In this document: piece after piece, positions 22,885 through 61,141 of the stretch
How the letters are laid out: each line of letters opens with the position of its first letter
How positions within the stretch are numbered: position 1 is the stretch's first letter
DNA from: an uncultured Gammaproteobacteria bacterium
Lineage (GTDB): Bacteria; Patescibacteriota; Patescibacteriia; HK-STAS-PATE-3
Length of the DNA stretch: 63,055 nt
Reading direction: 5' to 3'
NCBI GenBank assembly: GCA_964637345.1
Contig: CAZWTD010000004.1
Span: 1 to 63,055, forward strand
Position numbers and translations under genes: made by a program
The notes under the pieces: generated by a model
Database searches by the model: none
What the model saw: the letters and a program-made list of their open reading frames with translations, nothing else
What the model was told of the DNA's origin: nothing

Positions 22885-22992
22885 TTATAACAGCTCCCCG
22901 CTCGCAAGGTGCTGACTAGCCTGCGAGTAGTTCGCATAAAACACCAAACATAACCTTTATGCGCAATTATTTCGCATAATAACGAGTTGTAC
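22885..22992 (+). other. Degenerate attC-like recombination site preceding cassette 1
   Basis: TTATAAC(22885) and ACATAAC(22948), hairpins CTCGCAAGG/CCTGCGAG and TTATGCG/CGCATAA, ending in GTTGTAC. Confidence 0.45.
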
Positions 22993-23949
22993 GAAAATTT
23001 GCCTCCCTCATTATCAGATAAGCGCGGCTATACCACCAAGATTACTAAACACCGAATGACCCACAAATACCACATGCTAAAGTTCGACGTATTAGCAAAT
23101 GTTATATCGGGTCTTTTTGGAATAACTACAAAAAATAAAAGTGTTTTTGAAATCCCATCTGATTTCTTACTCATGTTTGATTTACAGGTAGAATTTCAAC
23201 AATGGCCTGATAAATCTGAAAGAAATGAAAGAGTGCATCAATTAGCCTCGAGACTGATATTAGCATTTAACGATATAAATGAATCGATTGGTTCATTAAA
23301 CAGAAATCTTGTTTTGCTAAATAGTGACTTTAGTTTGGTTAGAGTAAAAAAGATTCCGATTCAAAAAGCATTACTGGAGAAAAGACTAGACCAAGTATTC
23401 CATGATGTAAGAGTTTCTAAAGGTCTCTCTAGTATAATTACGCCCCATATAAAAAGTTCTCTAACTCTTTTATTAAGATCATATGTTGATCGGGTTGCTG
23501 AGGACTGTAAAAAGGTGGTCGAAGTAATTTCTCCAAGAGGTAACCCTTTAGTTAAAAACCTCAACGTGCCTCCCGCATACTTGCAGCAAACCAACGAGGT
23601 GTTAGATCTATTTTACCTTGGGTACAAATCTACAAGCCTACTGGTCTTAGGAAAACTATTTGAGGGAATATTAACTCGCTACATTATTCGTCTTGTGCAA
23701 TCGAATAAAATTAATTTGAACATGTCGGCCCTTAGAGAGATGACGTTTGATAATAAACTTGGACTATTGTTTTCAAAAGGATTTGTTACAAGAAAAGATT
23801 ACTTGATTCTTGCTAAACTGATTTGGGATAGGAACATTGGTGGGCATTTTGTGAGCGAAAGAAAACGTAGGGAATCAGAAAAAGAGGCAGAGGCCACAAT
23901 TAAGTTAGTTATGCCCTTATTGAAGAAGTATGACACAAAACTGAAATGA
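22987..23949 (+). CDS. Cassette 1: protein with C-terminal HEPN/DUF4145-like domain
   Basis: AT-rich. LVLGKLFEGIL..DRNIGGH contains R-x4-H. Alternative ATG at 23056. Confidence 0.7.
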   Translation: MYENLPPSLSDKRGYTTKITKHRMTHKYHMLKFDVLANVISGLFGITTKNKSVFEIPSDFLLMFDLQVEFQQWPDKSERNERVHQLASRLILAFNDINESIGSLNRNLVLLNSDFSLVRVKKIPIQKALLEKRLDQVFHDVRVSKGLSSIITPHIKSSLTLLLRSYVDRVAEDCKKVVEVISPRGNPLVKNLNVPPAYLQQTNEVLDLFYLGYKSTSLLVLGKLFEGILTRYIIRLVQSNKINLNMSALREMTFDNKLGLLFSKGFVTRKDYLILAKLIWDRNIGGHFVSERKRRESEKEAEATIKLVMPLLKKYDTKLK

Positions 23950-23988
23950 TAGCCGCGCTTATCTTTATTAGACGATCGGCAAATCATC

Positions 23989-24045
23989 GTACAACAGCGT
24001 CTATACGACATAACGAGTACGTCGTATGAGACGCAAACGTTAGGT
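23989..24045 (+). other. attC site 1 (57 bp)
   Basis: GTACAAC-A-GCGTCT-ATACGAC..GTCGTAT-G-AGACGC-AAAC-GTTAGGT, including an extrahelical G. Confidence 0.9.
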
Positions 24046-24063
24046 GCCATTTCGTCTCATAAC

Positions 24064-24654
24064 ATGTTGAAAGCTACGCTCGATAGAAATTGCTTAATAA
24101 GCCTGAAGGAAAAAGACGGCGAGTTTGAAGAAATTCAGGAAATTATTGAATTACATAAAAAGAAAAGTGTTACCGTTTTTGTATGTGCCATAAGCGCTTC
24201 TGAATATCAGAGTGACGGTAGCATATCTCCTAAATATGATGATTTTACAAATTACCTAAAATCAATTGGCTGTGAAACTTTGGATGAGCTAGAACCCATG
24301 GCATATTGGGATATAGCTTATTGGGATCACGCTCTCTGGTCTGGGGATTCTATGAAAGAGTTTGAGAAAAAAATACACGAAATTCTTTTCCCAAATCTCG
24401 AATTCGAATATCAAACTTTTTGCAAAGCAAAAGGAATTGATCCTGATGCTAAACCATTAGATAAAAAATGGCTGAATGCAAAAGCCGACGTACAATCCAT
24501 CTGGTCTCACATCAATTCAGGGAATGATATATTTATTACGCAAGACAAAAACTATTTAAAGGATCAAAAACGGCAACTATTAGTAACGCTTGGCGCAAAG
24601 AATATCAACTCGCCGAAGGAGGCATTAGAAATCATCCGACGAAACGGCACCTAA
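24064..24654 (+). CDS. Cassette 2: PIN-domain-like protein
   Basis: TLDRNCL, SASE, KADVQ, DIFITQDKNY acidic pattern. The stop TAA lies within the inverse core ACCTAAC. Confidence 0.72.
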   Translation: MLKATLDRNCLISLKEKDGEFEEIQEIIELHKKKSVTVFVCAISASEYQSDGSISPKYDDFTNYLKSIGCETLDELEPMAYWDIAYWDHALWSGDSMKEFEKKIHEILFPNLEFEYQTFCKAKGIDPDAKPLDKKWLNAKADVQSIWSHINSGNDIFITQDKNYLKDQKRQLLVTLGAKNINSPKEALEIIRRNGT

Positions 24655-25011
24655 CACGGGCTAGCCGGTTCGCGAGCTATACAACTTGTTTATCACTAAG
24701 CCATAAAAATATGTCAGCAGAATGGGTTTCAGCGGTAGCGGCGGTTATTTCAGTCCCAATATCTGTTTGGGCGATAATATCCGCAAGAAATAACTCTAAG
24801 AACATAAAGAACATCTCCCAACGCTTTGGGATAGTAATGGAAGGCAATACGGTAATTGGCTCTGGTACCGCAGTACATATTGGTGACAGGAAATAAGTTT
24901 GCTATACGCTCGCTCACCCAAATTGCTCATTCATTCCGGCGGTACCTCGCTTTGCTCGATATTCTACCGCCTCAATTCCGTCGCAACTTCGGCTAGCCCG
25001 AAACGTTGTGC
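24649..25011 (+). other. attC site 2, interrupted by a 225-bp insertion (138 bp when reconstituted)
   Basis: ACCTAAC-A-CGGGCTAGCCG ... CGGCTAGCCCG-AAAC-GTTGTGC, a perfect 11-bp stem. Confidence 0.8.
24711..24896 (+). CDS. 61-aa single-TM hypothetical protein nested in attC2
   Basis: N-terminal hydrophobic helix. Flanked by GCTATAC direct repeats at 24676 and 24901. Confidence 0.6.
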   Translation: MSAEWVSAVAAVISVPISVWAIISARNNSKNIKNISQRFGIVMEGNTVIGSGTAVHIGDRK

Positions 25012-25110
25012 GCCATCAGATGTATTTTACCTATTAAAGAACCGAGGCAGTTACTTCGCGCATTGCGGAGTACTTACCTCGGCGTTTCGTCGGGTCGCTG
25101 GTGATAACAG

Positions 25111-25506
25111 TCAGTCGATTCTGGATCTCGACGCGTTCGCCAGGTCGTCGATGACGAGTAATGTGGCGAGTCTGCTCGGATCATCCTTGATGACGTAGCC
25201 CGAGAAGGAACTCCGGGTGCCGTCAAGTCTTTGGAGCTCGACGACACTGACATTCCACTCAATCCCGGAAGATCCCAACCGGATGATCGTGGTCGACTCG
25301 TCGACGGCGAAGGCAGAGCTGTTATCGACAGTGCACTGTGCGATCCCGTCGTACCAGTAGACACCGAGGGTGCCCGTCGCACTCTGGAAGTGGAGCACCA
25401 TGGAATCGGTTGGAACAATGTGGCTGGTGAGTCGCACGCTACTGCACCCGGCGGACGCCCCGACGAAGAGCGTACCGATCAACACAAGGAACGTGAAACG
25501 CCTCAT
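25111..25506 (-). CDS. Cassette 3: predicted lipoprotein, reverse orientation
   Basis: AAGGAGG SD, signal peptide with lipobox-like SAG-C. Confidence 0.7.
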   Translation of the reverse strand: MRRFTFLVLIGTLFVGASAGCSSVRLTSHIVPTDSMVLHFQSATGTLGVYWYDGIAQCTVDNSSAFAVDESTTIIRLGSSGIEWNVSVVELQRLDGTRSSFSGYVIKDDPSRLATLLVIDDLANASRSRID

Positions 25507-25587
25507 AGCGAACCCTCCTTCAGTTGGGACGTTTGCCTGGCGGGGATCAAGACAATCGGTAGTTGCCAGATTTCTACCGAACGTGCG

Positions 25588-25616
25588 AGCGTATCACGAA
25601 ATGACTATAATGTCAA
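25588..25616 (-). promoter_or_regulatory. Cassette-internal sigma70 promoter
   Basis: TTGACA-N17-TACGCT with extended TG. Confidence 0.7.
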
Positions 25617-25646
25617 TAGAAACTGTAAGAAAATACATCTTACAGC

Positions 25647-25708
25647 GCACAACACGGCGTATACGCCACTCCGTTTCTCTCCGCAGCGCATACGCCGAAA
25701 CGTTAGCT
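25647..25708 (+). other. attC site 3 (62 bp)
   Basis: GCACAAC-A-CGGCGTAT..ATACGCCG-AAAC-GTTAGCT. Confidence 0.88.
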
Positions 25709-25730
25709 GACACTCAGGATTCTCACTTTT

Positions 25731-26210
25731 ATGACCTATAAACACACCCAAGTTAGCTACCTGATGATTACCGTAACGGCTGCGGTACTGATCCTCTTCG
25801 CCTGGGTGTATCTTACTGCCCGGGCCGAGGCGCCGTCCTATGACTCAGGAACAAACGCCGGCGTTACTGGAGCTATGGCGCTCGTCGTCGTTCTCCTCGC
25901 TTCCTTCGTTTCCTTGCACGTACGAATTGATGATCAGCGTCTACGGATCTCCTTTGGCTATGGCATTTTTACAAAGCACTTTGCCCTGCGCGACATCCAA
26001 TCAGCGAACGTCGTAAGAAATAAATGGTATTACGGGCTAGGAATACGCTGGTCCCTGAAGCCGAGGATGTGGATCTACGCCGTTTCCGGCCTTGACGCAG
26101 TTGAACTACAACTGAAGAACGGAAAAGTCTACCGGATCGGTACGGACGAAGCTCAAGAACTCGAGGGCGCGATTCTCCAATCGATACAAAGGGAACAGCG
26201 CGACTTCTGA
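25731..26210 (+). CDS. Cassette 4: two-TM protein with bacterial PH-like C-terminal domain
   Basis: Begins 29 nt after the core GTT. Two TMs, then WYYGLGIR..VSGLDAVEL..IGTDE. No matching attC seen downstream. Confidence 0.75.
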   Translation: MTYKHTQVSYLMITVTAAVLILFAWVYLTARAEAPSYDSGTNAGVTGAMALVVVLLASFVSLHVRIDDQRLRISFGYGIFTKHFALRDIQSANVVRNKWYYGLGIRWSLKPRMWIYAVSGLDAVELQLKNGKVYRIGTDEAQELEGAILQSIQREQRDF

Positions 26211-26319
26211 CCTAAAGCCAAGCCTCGCTTCTTTCGAGTTACATAAATAGGCCTTCAACACTCTCGCCTTCTCGGCAAGATTCGGATACCTTTCCCAAAT
26301 AAAAGTTGTCCCGCGGGTA

Positions 26320-26649
26320 TTACACCGCGGGACTTGGAGCAGACTGAAGCTTGCGAACGACGTCTTTCGGCAGGTCACGGTAACAGTGGCACTCATCATC
26401 GTAGCTTGCCAAGACGCCTCTTAGGGTCGCGACCACACGATCCCCGACCTTCGCTTCGGTCACGGTGATAAGCCGCTGGCCTTCGGCCCAGACTCTTGTC
26501 TCGATCTCGGCCACCGCGACCTGATCAGGCTCGAAAAAACGAAGGCTGTCGAGGATGACCGCGAGATGCCGAAGGCCGAGGCCGAACATGGCCAAGAGCT
26601 GACGCCGACGAGCACGCTCGAGAAAAAGCTGCACTTCGTCTAAACGCAT
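26320..26649 (-). CDS. Hypothetical protein
   Basis: AGGGAGG SD. A 9-bp hairpin GTCCCGCGG/CCGCGGGAC overlaps the stop. Confidence 0.6.
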   Translation of the reverse strand: MRLDEVQLFLERARRRQLLAMFGLGLRHLAVILDSLRFFEPDQVAVAEIETRVWAEGQRLITVTEAKVGDRVVATLRGVLASYDDECHCYRDLPKDVVRKLQSAPSPAV

Positions 26650-26701
26650 GACTACCTCCCTTTGTACAGAACCGATCCGAGCTTAATCGTGTTCAATAAA
26701 T

Positions 26702-26798
26702 CCGTCAAGAAAACACAAAACCGCCTCGGTGCCCGCCGAAGGGCGGACAGCCGGGCCTGGTTTGTGTGTTTGTGTTGCGCCGTGGACGGGAGTTTTTT
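26702..26798. other. Long irregular hairpin (leader RNA or terminator)
   Basis: Nested stems CCGTC/GACGG, ACACAAAACC/GGTTTGTGT and TGCCCGCC/GGCGGACA. Confidence 0.45.
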
Positions 26799-27063
26799 GT
26801 TTAACTGCGATCCGAATCGAGCTCGTGATTGAGCTCGTCGAGGAGTTCGCGCATTTCCGCGATCCACTGACGATGTCCGTGCGTTTTTAGACCAAGCTGA
26901 CGGACAAGCTTGGGCGTCCAGGAGCACAATCTCCGTTCAGACGCGTTCGAGGTTTCCTCCGAAACGAGAATCCTCCTTCCTCGAGCTCTCACCCGCCGAA
27001 AGCCTCTGAAGTACGCGGGCGAAAGAACAATAATGAACGAATCTGGATCACTCCAGAGCATCC

Positions 27064-27092
27064 AGTATAGCGCAAAAAAGGCTCCGAGTCAA
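27064..27092 (-). promoter_or_regulatory. Sigma70 promoter
   Basis: TTGACT-N17-TATACT. Confidence 0.75.
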
Positions 27093-27110
27093 CCCTCACC
27101 ATTTTTACTT

Positions 27111-27533
27111 AGCCGCTTTTCTTGGCAGCAAGAAAAGCGGCAGAAAAGAACTGCCGCCATGCCGAAAAACTCTTGAGCCTCAACCTCGCCGACCGGGACC
27201 GCGTAACTCGTTCGCCGGTATTCGGCGAACTTCGAACAAACGCGGTCATCCGAACGGCCGTCTCGGCCTGCGTTCATACGAGTTTTTCAGAATGGCGGAG
27301 CCAGAAGATCGTATCGAAGCGAAAATAAGATTTCAGCACGACGGGTCCGGGTCCCGCGCATGCTGTTTTTCAGCAAAAGAAACGCGTTCGACGGGAACGC
27401 ATTCGCGGGACCCGGAACTCTTTGCTTCTTTCTGGTTACAGAAAGAAGAGGGCGCCAGCCCTACGGATCAAAACCAAAAAGAATCTAAAATTCTTGCTGC
27501 CCTGCCTACCCCAGGCAGGCAAGAAAAGCGGCT
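27111..27533. mobile_element. MITE-like or structured non-coding element with 24-bp terminal inverted repeats
   Basis: Left end AGCCGCTTTTCTTGGCAGCAAGAA (27111-27134). The right end is its reverse complement (27491-27500 plus 27520-27533), split by a 19-nt palindrome. At least five internal hairpins. Confidence 0.6.
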
Positions 27534-27548
27534 CATTCAAGAATGCTC

Positions 27549-29240
27549 TTAGCGCAGCACCCCGCCCCACTCGAGGAGCGTAAAGCCTTTGCGCTCCGGA
27601 GTTTTGATATCATAGCCTTTCACGTCGATCGGCTTCTCGAGGGGCATGAAATCCATGAGCACGCGGATGATGGTATCCGGCTTCGGATCGACGGACAGGG
27701 GCGCGAGTTGATTCATCTCGCGGTTGCCGAGGAAGCTGATGAAGTAGTAGGGCGCGCTTTGCATCCGCGGTCCCCAGAACTCGATGAAGTCCGCGCGCTC
27801 TTTTGCGTTCAAGCCGAGTTGAGCGAGCTTCTCGAGAAGAAAGCCTTGGACTTCGTTTTGGGTAACGACCCAGCCGCGCTTCGGCGTTTCGTAGATCGAA
27901 TTGCTCCGACCTTCCCAGAAAAGATAGGGATAGGCGTTCCCGGTCGCGCGGTCGGTCAGATGCCCGGCCGGAGTCGCGGTCACCTTCCAGCCATTATTGT
28001 AGGCAGGTTCGGTCTTGCTGAAACCCCCAGTCGGCGCAACCTGAACACTGACATCAGTCGTCTTCTCCGGGTAAAGATAGATGACCGGCTTCCCGCATTC
28101 GGCGAGCGGCTGGAACTTCGTGTTCTGAGCCTGGATCAAGCGATCGAAGGGATCGAGGAAATAGATCAGCGGCCGATCAGCGAGAAATTCCTCGTAGGTT
28201 TGCTTTGTGCCATCCTCGCGCAAGGTGGCGTAGGAATCATAGATTTCAAGCAGGCGCTCATGGCGAGTATCCTTCAAGGCGTAGATTGCGTCGCCGAGAT
28301 TCGTAACGCCGACCCGCTCCAAGTCGCGGCCTAAAACAACCTCTTCCGGGTTCACCACATTCGCGTAATTCATCGCGCCGCAACCGCCAATTCGAACGAC
28401 GTTATAGATGGTCGTATTCGTCGTCCCGTCATTCCAGGTAATCGCCGGAATCTCGGTTGAGCCAATGAAATCAAAGACGAGCTTATAGGTTCGGACCGTC
28501 CCGTCCGGAGCTCGAAGATAAAAACCAAAATGTGGGAAATACTCGCTCGTTGAGGCTGGATCTGTGTAGACGTCGCCGTAGGTCGGATGCGTAAACGCGA
28601 CGGTCCGCCCTGCGCTATGGAAGAAGCCGTCTGCATCCTCGTCAAGTTCAAGGCTTTGGCGCGGACTCGGCCCGGTAATCGTTGCAGGGAAATCAAGCTC
28701 ACTGATCATCGTATCTGCATCAACCGTATACTTTGCCGGATCAAGCGCGTAGGCCGGGTCTTCAGACTGCTTTGCGAGGAGCACTAGTCCGGTCGGCGTA
28801 TTCACAAAACGATAGAACTGGGGAGTTGTTGCCGGGCCATCATACCGCGCGGAAACAAGATAGAGTGTCTGACCTTGATACTTCGAAGATTGCAAAGTTC
28901 CTGCGTCGATCGTAGTTAAGGTCATACCAGAGTCAGCGAGAAGGATGTCTGGGTTACTCACGACGCGAAGATCATCACCCGGCTCGAAAATCGACTCGGT
29001 TTGGACAGGCTCAAGTGAGGTATTCGTGTTCTCGAGCGAGGAATTGACGTTTTCGTTCGTGTTAGCGACGGCCGACCAGTTTACGTTGGCGACGGCATTC
29101 TCGTTCGCTGTCGTGTTCGTTCCCGTATTCGTGTTCGTCGGCGCTTCAGCTTTCTCAACGGCTAAAATCCACAACAAGGCGCCGATCCCGAGAATGAGAA
29201 CCGAGGCGGTCACGATCATCCAAATTTTTTGCTTCGTCAT
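27549..29240 (-). CDS. Membrane-anchored surface protein with C-terminal KPVIYLYP domain
   Basis: N-terminal TM, Asn/Thr-rich linker, CGKPVIYLYP..YLFWEG..FIEFW..EWGG. Confidence 0.8.
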   Translation of the reverse strand: MTKQKIWMIVTASVLILGIGALLWILAVEKAEAPTNTNTGTNTTANENAVANVNWSAVANTNENVNSSLENTNTSLEPVQTESIFEPGDDLRVVSNPDILLADSGMTLTTIDAGTLQSSKYQGQTLYLVSARYDGPATTPQFYRFVNTPTGLVLLAKQSEDPAYALDPAKYTVDADTMISELDFPATITGPSPRQSLELDEDADGFFHSAGRTVAFTHPTYGDVYTDPASTSEYFPHFGFYLRAPDGTVRTYKLVFDFIGSTEIPAITWNDGTTNTTIYNVVRIGGCGAMNYANVVNPEEVVLGRDLERVGVTNLGDAIYALKDTRHERLLEIYDSYATLREDGTKQTYEEFLADRPLIYFLDPFDRLIQAQNTKFQPLAECGKPVIYLYPEKTTDVSVQVAPTGGFSKTEPAYNNGWKVTATPAGHLTDRATGNAYPYLFWEGRSNSIYETPKRGWVVTQNEVQGFLLEKLAQLGLNAKERADFIEFWGPRMQSAPYYFISFLGNREMNQLAPLSVDPKPDTIIRVLMDFMPLEKPIDVKGYDIKTPERKGFTLLEWGGVLR

Positions 29241-60739: not shown

Positions 60740-61141
60740 GGGGATGCCTAATAATCGACCGTTCGTTCACAATTATCATCGGCAAGCCGGAAACCCAGGG
60801 TCATCCGCAACGTTCCCTGGAACTGCAAGTGTCAACTCATTTGCGAGCAAGGTGAAGACGCTGGTCGCGCGAGCGTTCCAGCCGATGCAGCTTGCGTCCG
60901 CTGTCGCTTAAAGTCGACAGCCATCTGGGGTGGTTTTCTTCCTGAATAGCCACCTTGGGTGCTATTACCTCAGGATAGGACTTCTCGTTGGCTCGCGAGA
61001 CGTCTGAAGTCATTGAGCCTAGAGTGCATGGGATTTCGTTCGCTTCCCACCTGTGCATTTGAAACTTTGAAGCGAACTCTGCTTGGACACCGTTGATAAT
61101 TGTCCGACGAGACGCGGGTGCAATACCCGCCATCTCCACCA
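60740..61141 (+). ncRNA. ssrA: tmRNA (one-piece)
   Basis: 5' GGGGATG pairs with 3' CATCTCC-A-CCA, including a G3.U wobble. T-arm GCGGG-TGCAATA-CCCGC. Internal tag ORF. Directly follows smpB. Confidence 0.93.
60825..60911 (+). other. tmRNA tag reading frame ASVNSFASKVKTLVARAFQPMQLASAVA*
   Basis: Resume codon GCA after AACT, ending in AVA-TAA. Confidence 0.75.

Follow-up and report, generated by a model that had tools for sequence, protein, structure and literature searches.

An inverted pair of structured intergenic repeats with a predicted intrastrand triplex in a Patescibacteria genome

Intrastrand triplex repeats of the BoxC/PIT/TM_ECO type, found in E. coli and other bacteria, were reportedly studied by Hoyne and Maher in 2000 and 2002. 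They are short, non-coding and strictly intergenic, occur in few to tens of copies, have no adjacent transposase and show no tie to the function of neighbouring genes, all of which also holds for the Patescibacteria repeat described here. At 37 nt, TM_ECO is G/C-rich and so nearly invariant that covariation is absent; strand bias and an attached long hairpin are likewise missing (Holder et al. 2015, PMC4666352). Five E. coli loci hold an inverted pair, which always joins type A with type B (PMC4666352). REP/REPIN-RAYT and IS200/IS605-derived PATE are extragenic hairpins without TIR or TSD that form inverted pairs (BIME/REPIN-like). For IS608 and ISDra2, Ton-Hoang is said to have described in 2010 an orientation bias relative to replication. 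RNA triple helices such as MALAT1, MENbeta and ENE are eukaryotic, viral or transposon-borne; in MALAT1/ENE, two U-rich strands on opposite sides of an internal loop hold a separate 3' tail between them. We know of no such repeat families described for Patescibacteria, and a literature search found nothing on such repeats in Patescibacteria/CPR.

Make-up of the 423-bp stretch

Within the analysed stretch of 63,055 nucleotides (the window), the first-pass annotation had read positions 27111-27533 as a single non-coding element closed by 24-bp inverted repeats and packed with hairpins. All listed stems are present, and the terminal inverted repeat was found as 27104-27129 / 27515-27540 (26 nt, 81% complementary), with the exact 14-mer GCAAGAAAAGCGGC at 27128 and 27519. 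Folding of a 446-nt stretch yielded -200 kcal/mol on the plus strand (shuffles -136 +/- 5.8, z -11.1) and -208 kcal/mol on the minus strand (z -9.3 versus shuffles), and the energy model closes the whole region by the terminal repeat. The annotation had seen no credible ORF, no obvious target-site duplication and no recognisable RNA family; indeed no internal ORF matches Pfam, no duplication is visible in the flanks and no Rfam family reaches its gathering score. Rfam 15 at E<=1 returned only chance miRNA-like hairpin matches for the region, far under gathering scores (the best, mir-3910, with 25 bits versus 95), and ARAGORN found no tRNA or tmRNA there. The only Rfam family at gathering score in the window is tmRNA (60740-61141).

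However, the 423-bp stretch is a composite of two back-to-back repeat copies and a fragment, not one unit, and for this reason the earlier interpretation has to be revised. Two related modules of ~125-190 nt form an inverted pair with their tails facing outward, accompanied by a solo hairpin (Table 1). Its left half (minus strand) shares its plan with its right half (plus strand): a long stem with conserved ends (P1), a pyrimidine linker, and a hairpin with a pyrimidine and a purine arm (P2). The left arm of the supposed terminal repeat is the P2 hairpin of the type-2 module, a complete 13+13 hairpin, and the right arm is the solo hairpin, a degenerate copy of the former interrupted by a 19-nt insert. 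Comparative data show the terminal repeat to be three copies of one P2 hairpin arm. Since the repeat is made up of copies of one arm, the 423 bp that it closes probably do not form a unit in the biological sense. As a whole, the 423 bp is single-copy, its arrangement being found nowhere else in 41 relatives; only the modules recur at other loci, where the two halves occur separately.

Table 1. Features in and around the composite stretch.
Feature	Position	Strand	Details
Type-2 module	27302->27109	minus	minus-strand fold and model R2; order P1 -> linker CAGTTCTTTTCT -> P2
Type-2 P1	27154..27298	minus	closing stem 27154-27172 / 27280-27298 (19 nt, 89%)
Inner hairpins of type-2 P1	27197-27204/27240-27247; 27210-27217/27223-27230	minus	8 nt each, 100%
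Putative type-2 third-strand tract	27143..27150	minus	TTCTTTTC
Type-2 P2 hairpin	27112..27141	minus	GCCGCTTTTCTTG / CAAGAAAAGCGGC, 4-nt loop; 13 nt, 100%
Conserved 5' leader motif	27314..27326	plus	TCGAAGCGAAAAT, weakly -10-like
Type-1 module	27340-27464	plus	model R1, fold, covariation
Type-1 P1	27343-27363 / 27399-27420	plus	inverted repeat 27346-27363 / 27399-27416 (18 nt, 94%); then linker ACTCTTTG, P2, P3
Putative type-1 third-strand tract	27419..27423	plus	TCTTT, parallel Hoogsteen complement of AGAAA (27440-27444)
Type-1 P2 hairpin	27425..27448	plus	CTTCTTTCTG gtta CAGAAAGAAG; 27425-27434 / 27439-27448 (10 nt, 100%)
Type-1 P3, small variable hairpin	27449..27462	plus	AGGGC gcca GCCCT
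Solo type-2-like P2 hairpin	27488-27533	plus	nested 19-nt palindrome CCTGCCTACCCCAGGCAGG at 27501-27519
563-aa membrane-anchored protein gene	27549..29240	minus	stop 16 nt from element
Sigma70-like promoter	27064..27092	minus	TTGACT-17-TATACT; drives small minus-strand gene

The type-1 module scored 128 bits (E 8.5e-29) with its covariance model, R1, and folds at -70.3 kcal/mol (z -8.1). Its P1 base is conserved (GGGGTYYGGGGG ... CCCCCRRRAC), and its P2 (helix 4) is 99% paired with double changes in 9/10 pairs. On the minus strand, P3 is followed by CUUCUUUCUG, which gives it a terminator-like look. The leader motif lies 27-29 nt upstream of P1 in three own-genome copies, with TCGAAGCGAATAAT (C5) and TCGAAGTGATAAT (C8) at equal spacing. 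Model R2, the type-2 counterpart, matched the window at 27109-27163(-) with 72.4 bits (E 9e-16), and the same architecture is found at G000:C1:16516-16640(-) and in G037, G022, G088 and G146. The P2 copies of C1, G037 and G022 carry compensatory changes, and the C1 copy bridges the two types by combining a type-1 P1 base with a type-2 tail. The window itself pairs type 2 with type 1, as the E. coli inverted pairs join type A with type B.

In the solo hairpin the 5' arm is degenerate. Because a U-rich run (27490->27473) follows on the minus strand, the hairpin may terminate transcription of the 563-aa gene; the minus-strand fold of 27466-27552 is weak (z -1.4). That gene is real: G001, a genome of the same family, and four further families have homologs at 48% identity. 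The promoter on the other side is conserved in G001, whose orthologous spacer of ~70 nt holds a simple 35-nt terminator hairpin only.

Distribution, covariation and the third-strand rule

Both models were run against 151 genomes of the class, and R1 also against a sample of the phylum. R1 found 4 copies in the own genome, 47 matches in 18/151 class genomes, and 8 further genomes in the phylum sample, one of them with 14 copies. Type-2 tails (R2, E<=0.01) were matched in 29/151 class genomes, strongly in about a dozen, with the weaker matches unverified and some cross-matching type-1 P2. Copy number per genome is 1-16, with 16 near-identical R2 copies in G062 as the maximum, and copies within a genome are more alike than those from different genomes. 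Among the genomes searched, the repeat occurs in Patescibacteria only. A single-copy sequence with neither homologs nor covariation, named in the annotation as the outcome that would overturn its reading, is not what the modules present; both are abundant. Stem cells are paired in 91.9% versus 69.1% in shuffles and double changes occur in 37/42 pairs, while slid controls reach at most 60%. The P1 interior (60-130 nt) is free to vary provided that pairing persists. Conserved sequence runs 10-35 nt past P1 on the 5' side and beyond P2 on the 3' side, without symmetry. A 25-nt core is kept across classes of the phylum, which is odd for selfish DNA unless constrained or transferred.

The pyrimidine tract is 5-10 nt long; the 5' arm of P2 is its mirror image and the 3' arm the matching purine tract. 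About 19 distinct linker/purine-arm states, length changes and indels included, obey the parallel Hoogsteen rule. Examples are AGAAA/TCTTT, AAAAA/TTTTT, AAAA/TTTT, AAGAAA/TTCTTT, AAAAAG/TTTTTC and AGAAAAG/TCTTTTC; further ones are AAGAAAAG/TTCTTTTC, the type-2 state of the window, in which tract and P2 purine arm are parallel Hoogsteen complements, as well as AAAGAAAAG/TTTCTTTTC, AAGAAAAAG/TTCTTTTTC and AAAAGAAAG/TTTTCTTTC. Linkers match their own arm over 6.28 nt, compared to 5.15 +/- 0.10 for permuted pairs (0/2000). Among 61 copies, the mirror match is better than a direct-repeat match in 32, equal in 15 and worse in 14. A direct-repeat model, in which the linker would be Watson-Crick-paired to the purine arm, fits symmetric tracts only and fails for AGAAA, AAGAAA, AAGAAAAAG and AAAAGAAAG. 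On this comparative evidence, the rule is the signature of a predicted intrastrand triplex, which on the sense strand would be of class IV (pyrimidine motif: T/U.A-T, C+.G-C) and on the complement of class II (purine motif: A.A-T, G.G-C).

Class II is also the class of TM_ECO and E. coli BoxC/PIT, and as in these, three consecutive blocks on one strand obey the triplex rule. In the window, the sequence rule holds for tract 27419-27423 with 27425-27448 and for tract 27143-27150 with 27112-27141. The Patescibacteria repeat is likewise multi-copy, intergenic and transposase-free. Unlike TM_ECO, it has an A/T-rich triplex of 5-10 triads fused to a 70-190-nt P1 with a conserved base, three-strand covariation and a replication-strand bias; judged by the published description of TM_ECO (PMC4666352), it has no sequence similarity to the repeat (125-190 nt, A/T-rich triads). 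The repeat also follows the sequence rule of MALAT1/ENE: the order of a 5' U-rich Hoogsteen strand, a U-rich Watson-Crick strand and a 3' A-rich tract is alike, and stacks of U.A-U (5-10 triples) are broken by C+.G-C. In contrast to these RNAs, it is a simple fold-back on a hairpin and a dispersed repeat, and its transcription is putative. Pyrimidine-motif triplexes that contain C+ are typically RNA structures, which speaks against a DNA reading. Sense-strand wobbles are G.T-type versus A.C in a ratio of 32:16; this lends slight weight to a fold in the sense strand; that strand is the template for leading-strand synthesis and not the one exposed in IS608-type transposition.

Genomic position, orientation and candidate enzymes

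The copies are intergenic, and their orientation is independent of neighbouring genes and consistent relative to replication. Type-1 copies are sense-tandem in 8, antisense-tandem in 11, convergent in 6 and divergent in 2 cases. For all 5 primary copies of the own genome, the sense strand is the negative-GC-skew strand (+/-20 kb); the C5 and C8 copies follow that skew, and their immediate flanking genes run in the direction of the repeat. In this genome it is the majority gene strand, and not coding composition, that GC skew follows. Read along the sense strand, the GC skew of type-1 flanks (~3 kb, 1.5 kb each side) was negative in 25 and positive in 7 cases (18 versus 1 at |z|>2), and that of type-2 flanks, G062 left out, in 11 versus 1. 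Along G062, the 16 copies change strand a single time, which fits two replichores that start at dnaA. This orientation bias matches that of IS608/ISDra2. In G283, copies lie between co-oriented genes and run in the same direction, a point against the repeat reading, and the local GC skew of 0.25 is too extreme to be read as a pure replication signal. A riboswitch or 5' leader is ruled out because orientation is independent of the downstream gene. The suggestion that a large structured RNA is cut out of the upstream mRNA finds no support for a 423-nt unit, because the two halves have opposite polarity and the family is oriented independently of its neighbours.

Presence of the repeat differs between species of one genus. 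In G078 it lies between a 195-aa gene and ileS, where the congener G010 has a 45-nt spacer; in G084 it directly follows a stop codon, and the congener G133 is without it. Congener comparison defined no exact element ends, the intergenic DNA being too diverged (70-76% identity), and the lack of a definable end or target-site duplication speaks against a mobile repeat. G029 carries two 100%-identical 217-nt copies 1134 nt apart; there and in G283, copies ~1 kb apart surround single genes in a cassette-like manner. Like the repeat, integron attC sites are hairpins whose ends are conserved while the centre varies. An integron-like cassette array (22885-26210) lies 1-4 kb to the left; both are within one 4.66-kb accessory stretch, the repeat at its far end. 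Unlike attC, however, the repeat lacks a GTTRRRY/RYYYAAC core, and most copies are solitary between housekeeping genes; the sites of the array itself (AAACGTTAGGTGCC) are unrelated. An attC site or a part of the array is ruled out by these differing cores.

As in REP/REPIN, the hairpins of the repeat are kept by compensatory change, copies within a genome are more alike, and the host genomes encode HUH Y1 enzymes (NF047646). The own genome has three RAYT-like genes, two of them over the NF047646 cut-off; their flanks carry other palindromes. Such genes occur in 18/18 type-1-positive class genomes versus 79/133 of the rest; the type-2-positive G050, G126, G095 and G048 gave no RAYT-like match at E<=1e-5, which is a point against a mobile repeat. 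The absence of a transposase next to any copy is another, as are RAYT-like genes that stand without R1 or R2 beside them in the own genome, G062, G088 and G131; a RAYT-flanking REP is thereby ruled out. REP palindromes measure 20-40 nt, carry a GTAG/CGTC tag and number tens to hundreds; the repeat has no such tag, and its copy numbers of 1-16 are low and speak against a REP-type repeat. It is a larger, asymmetric unit (P1, tract and P2), flanks no RAYT-like gene examined and has no autonomous element with its ends. As to IS200/IS605-derived elements, the repeat has hairpins and the strand bias; neither its ends nor a target sequence could be delimited, and no parent IS came to light. TnpB (PF07282) is absent from the own genome, which rules out a TnpB omega-RNA. 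A DDE-type MITE does not fit either, as there are no terminal inverted repeats at the very ends and no duplication visible in the flanks.

Explanations and meaning

The reading that we favour, as somewhat better than an even guess, is a previously undescribed family of small, non-coding, non-autonomous Patescibacteria repeats that fold as single strands and are comparable to the E. coli BoxC/PIT triplex repeats and to REP/IS200-type elements. Such a repeat would multiply as folded ssDNA exposed at replication forks, probably handled by an HUH Y1 (IS200/RAYT-like) enzyme, abundant in these genomes, and the hairpin-plus-triplex fold would be the feature recognised or selected. The window pair would have come to lie in the short gap that separates the 563-aa gene from the next promoter, where the solo hairpin may now act in place of the 35-nt terminator hairpin of the closest relative. 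Of the three earlier suggestions, a MITE came closest, except that there is no single 423-bp element with terminal repeats. An origin-like ssDNA structure holds as regards folding as a single-stranded nucleic acid, but not as an origin, because there are 1-16 dispersed copies and most relatives have none.

The main rival to the repeat reading takes the modules for sibling small RNAs, each an independently transcribed ~125-200-nt RNA whose 3' part forms a U.A-U / C+.G-C triple helix in the major groove. As a fold-back version of the stability element of MALAT1/ENE, the triplex would shield the RNA from 3' exonucleases or present P1 to a partner, and the window would hold two divergently transcribed copies. 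Strong covariation around a variable-length apical insert is as in structured RNAs, the 5' leader keeps a fixed spacing (TCGAAGYGAWAAT in the own genome; TTAGCA..TATTAGCA across three genera of one family), and some copies (C9, G062) end in a GC hairpin and a U run. The GU:AC ratio (32:16 on the sense strand) points the same way, as does the triplex rule itself, whose pyrimidine motif forms in RNA while the purine motif does not (PMC4666352). Yet nearly all copies would run head-on to replication, the distribution is patchy (12-20% of genomes), orthologous loci within genera differ in presence, and identical duplicates extend over 70 nt of additional flank. Upstream motifs vary by lineage, and neither window copy is preceded by a good sigma70 promoter. 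As proof of an RNA strand, the G.U-rich base of P1 carries less weight, since type-2 copies lack it and it shares nucleotides with the third-strand tract. On balance, we consider small RNAs doubtful.

Improbable, in our view, is a host-selected punctuation element, i.e. a bidirectional terminator, insulator or mRNA 3' stabiliser recruited between genes, in which GC hairpins (P1 one way, P3' the other) precede the U-rich P2 arm. In the window the element replaces the simple terminator hairpin of the orthologous G001 spacer, terminator-like matches lie on the minus strand at 27462-27449 and 27158-27136, 14/16 G062 copies face the 3' end of a gene, and only 2/27 copies lie between divergent genes. 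But terminator-like matches are no more numerous than in shuffles (4 versus 2.4 +/- 1.7), the U tracts are broken and partly sequestered in P2, most class genomes do without the element, and mirror-tract covariation and replication-strand bias are left unexplained. E. coli PIT elements are without terminator or promoter activity (PMC4666352). Finally, a single 423-bp MITE or structured RNA with terminal inverted repeats of 24-26 bp at its ends, although its MFE fold is closed by a repeat longer than chance expectation, is already contradicted and scarcely credible, given a unit seen once and in none of 41 relatives, halves that occur apart, a repeat accounted for by three P2-arm copies, and no TSD.

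The three-strand covariation is out of the ordinary. Earlier triplex repeats (E. coli BoxC/PIT) are near-identical, so that selection for the triplex is not demonstrable from them; the ~19 variant states provide comparative evidence for selection on the triple-stranded fold itself in a bacterium. Patescibacteria genomes are tiny and tightly packed, and persistence of the repeat across classes therefore suggests an active ssDNA mobilisation pathway or a conserved RNA device. In its specific form this is a tentative proposal, possible rather than probable: either the modules are transcribed and linker and P2 form an RNA triple helix in the major groove (5-10 U.A-U / C+.G-C triples) that caps a mobile or sibling small RNA, or the fold is an HUH-type ssDNA mobilisation signal. 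In the former case, bacteria would have, as far as we know for the first time, a counterpart of the MALAT1/ENE triplex that stabilises 3' ends; in the latter case, the triplex-plus-hairpin fold would be the recognition signal of a new HUH-type mobilisation system in Patescibacteria. Whether intrastrand triplexes are important in vivo, and on which strand or molecule, is a long-standing question that thus becomes testable, and R1 and R2 annotate puzzling 'super-structured' intergenic regions in CPR genomes.

Composite make-up of the 423-bp stretch

The first-pass annotation had described 27111-27533 as one 423-bp non-coding element, closed by 24-bp inverted repeats, without a credible ORF and matching no RNA family that it recognised. 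All of its hairpins and inverted repeats are present within 27104-27540, a region that folds with -200 kcal/mol on the plus strand (z -11.1) and -207.6 kcal/mol on the minus strand (z -9.3, both versus dinucleotide shuffles). ORFs inside the region were without any Pfam match, no Rfam family fits it, and ARAGORN detected nothing in the window. Both flanking units are minus-strand, and the flanking 563-aa gene is a real gene.

The idea of a single element did not hold. As a whole, the 423 bp occur once in the 1.0-Mb genome and were not found in 40 relatives; only their pieces recur. The right half (type-1, 27340-27464, plus strand) matches C5:58451-58575(+) and C8:14313-14436(-) of the same genome, with compensatory changes in the long stem among the three copies, and the left-end hairpin (27112-27154) matches C1:16519-16561. 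On the minus strand (27302->27109), the left half (type-2) shares the layout that the right half shows on the plus strand. In each, a long P1 stem is followed by a linker of pyrimidines and then by the hairpin P2, in which the 5' arm is pyrimidine and the 3' arm purine. Since the C1 copy fuses a type-1 P1 base (CTGGGGTCTGGGGG...CCCCCAG) with a type-2 tail and bridges both types, we regard them as one superfamily. Both 'ends' are type-2 P2 hairpins, so the inverted repeats thought to close the element are three copies of one hairpin arm.

Two further sequences were recorded. Just past the stop of a 159-aa gene, 26227-26247 (GCTTCTTTCGAGTTACATAAA) shares 86% identity with the 5' portion of type-1 P2 (27424-27444); this may be a decayed hairpin remnant, or chance. 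At C18:16850-17060 of the same genome (G000), the D-loop position of two tRNA-like sequences is occupied by a 19-nt palindrome, CCTGCCTACCGCAGGCAGG, which is 1 nt off the one inside the window hairpin (27501-27519). Neither tRNA-like sequence was called by ARAGORN, which reported only an intact tRNA-Ile(UAU) nearby (C18:17155-17230); CCTGCCTACCGCAGGCAGG may be a tiny mobile palindrome disrupting tRNA gene copies.

Features of the repeat region and RAYT-like genes of the same genome
Feature	Position	Strand	Remarks
563-aa gene	stop at 27549	-	flanks region; homologs of 31-51% identity in five other families
sigma70-like promoter TTGACT-17-TATACT	27092->27064	-	other flank of region
Type-2 linker CAGTTCTTTTC	window left half	-	pyrimidine
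Type-1 linker ACTCTTTG	window right half	+	pyrimidine
Type-2 P2 arms CTTTTCTTG/CAAGAAAAG	window left half	-	pyrimidine 5' / purine 3'
Type-1 P2 arms CTTTCTG/CAGAAAG	window right half	+	pyrimidine 5' / purine 3'
Third, solo type-2 P2 (right 'terminal' repeat)	27488-27533		decayed 5' arm; loop with 19-nt palindrome 27501-27519
Type-1 putative triplex tracts	27419-27423 with 27425-27448		window
Type-2 putative triplex tracts	27143-27150 with 27112-27141		window
RAYT-like genes (L044-L046 set)	C2:50145-50552; C13:18021-18503; C11:22609-22809	-; +; +	NF047646

A three-strand rule between linker and P2

The linker is neither a copy nor the complement of either P2 arm. It mirrors the 5' arm: replacing A by T and G by C in the purine arm, with both read 5'->3', gives the linker. 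This rule was kept in about 19 distinct states, among which insertions and deletions hit all three strands together. Linkers matched their own arm over 6.28 nt versus 5.15 +/- 0.10 for the arms of other copies (0 of 2000 permutations, kinship ignored). A direct-repeat (alternative helix) model did not fit the asymmetric tracts. Template-driven processes generate direct or inverted repeats but not mirror repeats, and the mirror rule is therefore explained most simply if selection favours a parallel third strand lying in the major groove. In the intrastrand triplex nomenclature given in PMC4666352, the sense strand (reading P1, linker, P2) would be a class IV pyrimidine-motif and its complement a class II purine-motif triplex. 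From the third strand to the Watson-Crick pyrimidine arm, the gap comprises one nucleotide and a stem extension of 3-5 bp, and we infer that the triplex is sterically feasible.

States of purine arm and linker, with the copies or genomes (G) carrying them
Purine arm	Linker	Carriers
AGAAA	TCTTT	12 copies, 6 genomes
AAAAA	TTTTT	18 copies, 9 genomes
AAAA	TTTT	
AAGAAA	TTCTTT	G010
AAAAAG	TTTTTC	G124
AAGAAAAG	TTCTTTTC	window left half, C1, G088, G146
AAAGAAAAG	TTTCTTTTC	G022, G062, G088
AAGAAAAAG	TTCTTTTTC	G037
AAAAGAAAG	TTTTCTTTC	G126
AGAAAAG	TCTTTTC	G095, G115
AAAAAA	TTTTTT	G048

Distribution, covariation and genomic placement

Using R1, a covariance model built from the three closest type-1 copies, we found four copies in the genome of the window and 47 matches in 18 of the 151 class genomes (1-7 per genome, patchy over 13 families); a sample across the phylum added 8 positive genomes, one of which has 14 copies. 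R2, a 55-position model of the type-2 tail, matched 29 of the 151 at E<=0.01, about a dozen strongly, the weaker matches being unconfirmed and some of them cross-matches to type-1 P2. One genome, G062, holds 16 near-identical copies. Among 33 distinct type-1 sequences, 91.9% of the cells were paired (shuffles gave 69.1 +/- 0.9%, and sliding the partners gave no more than 60%), figures that are somewhat inflated because the alignment was fitted to the model. Double-sided changes occurred at 37 of 42 pairs, and inside P1, where sequence and length (60-130 nt) differ between copies, pairing is kept. The homologs and covariation that the first-pass annotation had proposed to look for thus exist for the modules.

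G283, from another class of the phylum, carries 14 type-1 copies (loci L169, C5:6500-15500, L170 and L171), all preceded by CTCGTAGCAACA and several of them 0.2-1.2 kb apart in one orientation between co-oriented genes. Two copies in G114 (L024/L043) have about 25 nt in common downstream of the small variable hairpin P3. This stretch includes TTGTGAGTATAAT, an outward-directed motif resembling an extended -10, and in this lineage the repeat may carry an outward promoter.

Copies are intergenic and have ordinary housekeeping genes as neighbours, miaB/miaA, ileS, tgt, mraY and nusG among them. Relative to their neighbours, type-1 copies are sense-tandem (8), antisense-tandem (11), convergent (6) or divergent (2), and 14 of the 16 copies in G062 face the 3' end of a gene. 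In G078 a copy separates a 195-aa gene from ileS, where G010 of the same genus has a 45-nt spacer; a G084 copy directly past a stop codon has no counterpart in G133, again of the same genus. A recent duplication is seen in G029, whose two 217-nt units are 100% identical and lie 1134 nt from each other. In G001, the only close complete relative, rmuC and a 565-aa gene are separated by 400 nt, with a 35-nt hairpin next to the 565-aa stop and the homologous promoter after it. In the window, the composite element occupies precisely the interval between these two points.

From the 563-aa gene to rmuC, the window has 4.66 kb (22885-27548) in place of the 400-nt spacer; these 4.66 kb are accessory and include a putative integron-like array (four AAACGTTAGGTGCC-type cores at 24035, 25001, 25554 and 25698). 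They also hold a low-GC (34-40%) two-gene stretch (22900-24700). A small minus-strand transcription unit (26715-27092) comprises the TTGACT-17-TATACT promoter, a reading frame of no more than 86 aa whose end reads ...QWIAEMRELLDELNHELDSDRS, and a terminator-like hairpin with ACACAAAAC/GTTTGTGT on its two sides. Sequence and position of this unit are kept in G001, of the same family (L049 1100-1494).

Replication strand and possible origin of the repeats

In the genome of the window, GC skew follows the strand that carries most genes, with a coding-strand skew near zero, so it is a valid replication indicator there. The sense strand is the negative-skew strand in 5 of 5 primary copies (+/-20 kb), including those on C5 and C8, which are flanked by genes co-directional with the repeat; a sixth copy, the inverted partner in the window, lies outside these five. 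In G062, with dnaA at C1:14.4 kb, all 8 C1 copies are on the minus strand; those on C2 change strand once, from minus (three copies, below 90 kb) to plus (five, above 500 kb), in the way a terminus would predict. In other genomes, skew relative to the sense strand was negative around 25 of 32 type-1 loci (about 3 kb, 1.5 kb each side; 18 negative versus 1 positive at |z|>2) and, outside G062, around 11 of 12 type-2 loci. G283 is an exception: its copies are co-oriented with its own genes, and its skew of 0.25 is too extreme to interpret.

Replication-linked orientation bias is known for single-strand transposition of the IS608/ISDra2 type. We lean slightly towards reading the copies as non-autonomous repeats of a new family, which would fold as single strands, multiply in genomes and be tied to replication. 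The main rival, that the copies are instead a sibling sRNA family with a triplex-capped 3' part, seems rather unlikely: the pyrimidine motif, conserved 5' leaders and a GU:AC ratio of 32:16 on the sense strand speak for it, but nearly all such genes would run head-on to replication, an odd bias for an sRNA gene family. The two readings are compatible, because a mobile element may act via its transcript.

The genome of the window encodes three RAYT-like Y1 proteins (two above the NF047646 cut-off) and one Xer-like integrase; TnpB was not found in it. RAYT-like genes occur in 97 of the 151 class genomes, with up to 17 matches in one, and in 18 of 18 type-1-positive versus 79 of 133 other genomes (chance about 3e-4, phylogeny ignored). 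They are missing from some type-2 carriers, and no repeat copies were found beside them in the genomes checked; the link remains circumstantial. A 24-nt inverted repeat (GCGCAAGC...GCTTGCGC) brackets the C2 gene, and the C13 and C11 genes have palindromes within the reading frame.

The repeats are analogous to REP/IS200-type elements and to the E. coli BoxC/PIT intrastrand-triplex repeats, which likewise form inverted A+B pairs (PMC4666352). Our literature search turned up no account of comparable repeats from Patescibacteria. Intrastrand triplex repeats are already known as a kind (PMC4666352). What is new is the family itself, its fusion to a long hairpin with a conserved base, the support that covariation across copies lends to a triple-stranded fold, and the bias in orientation relative to replication.
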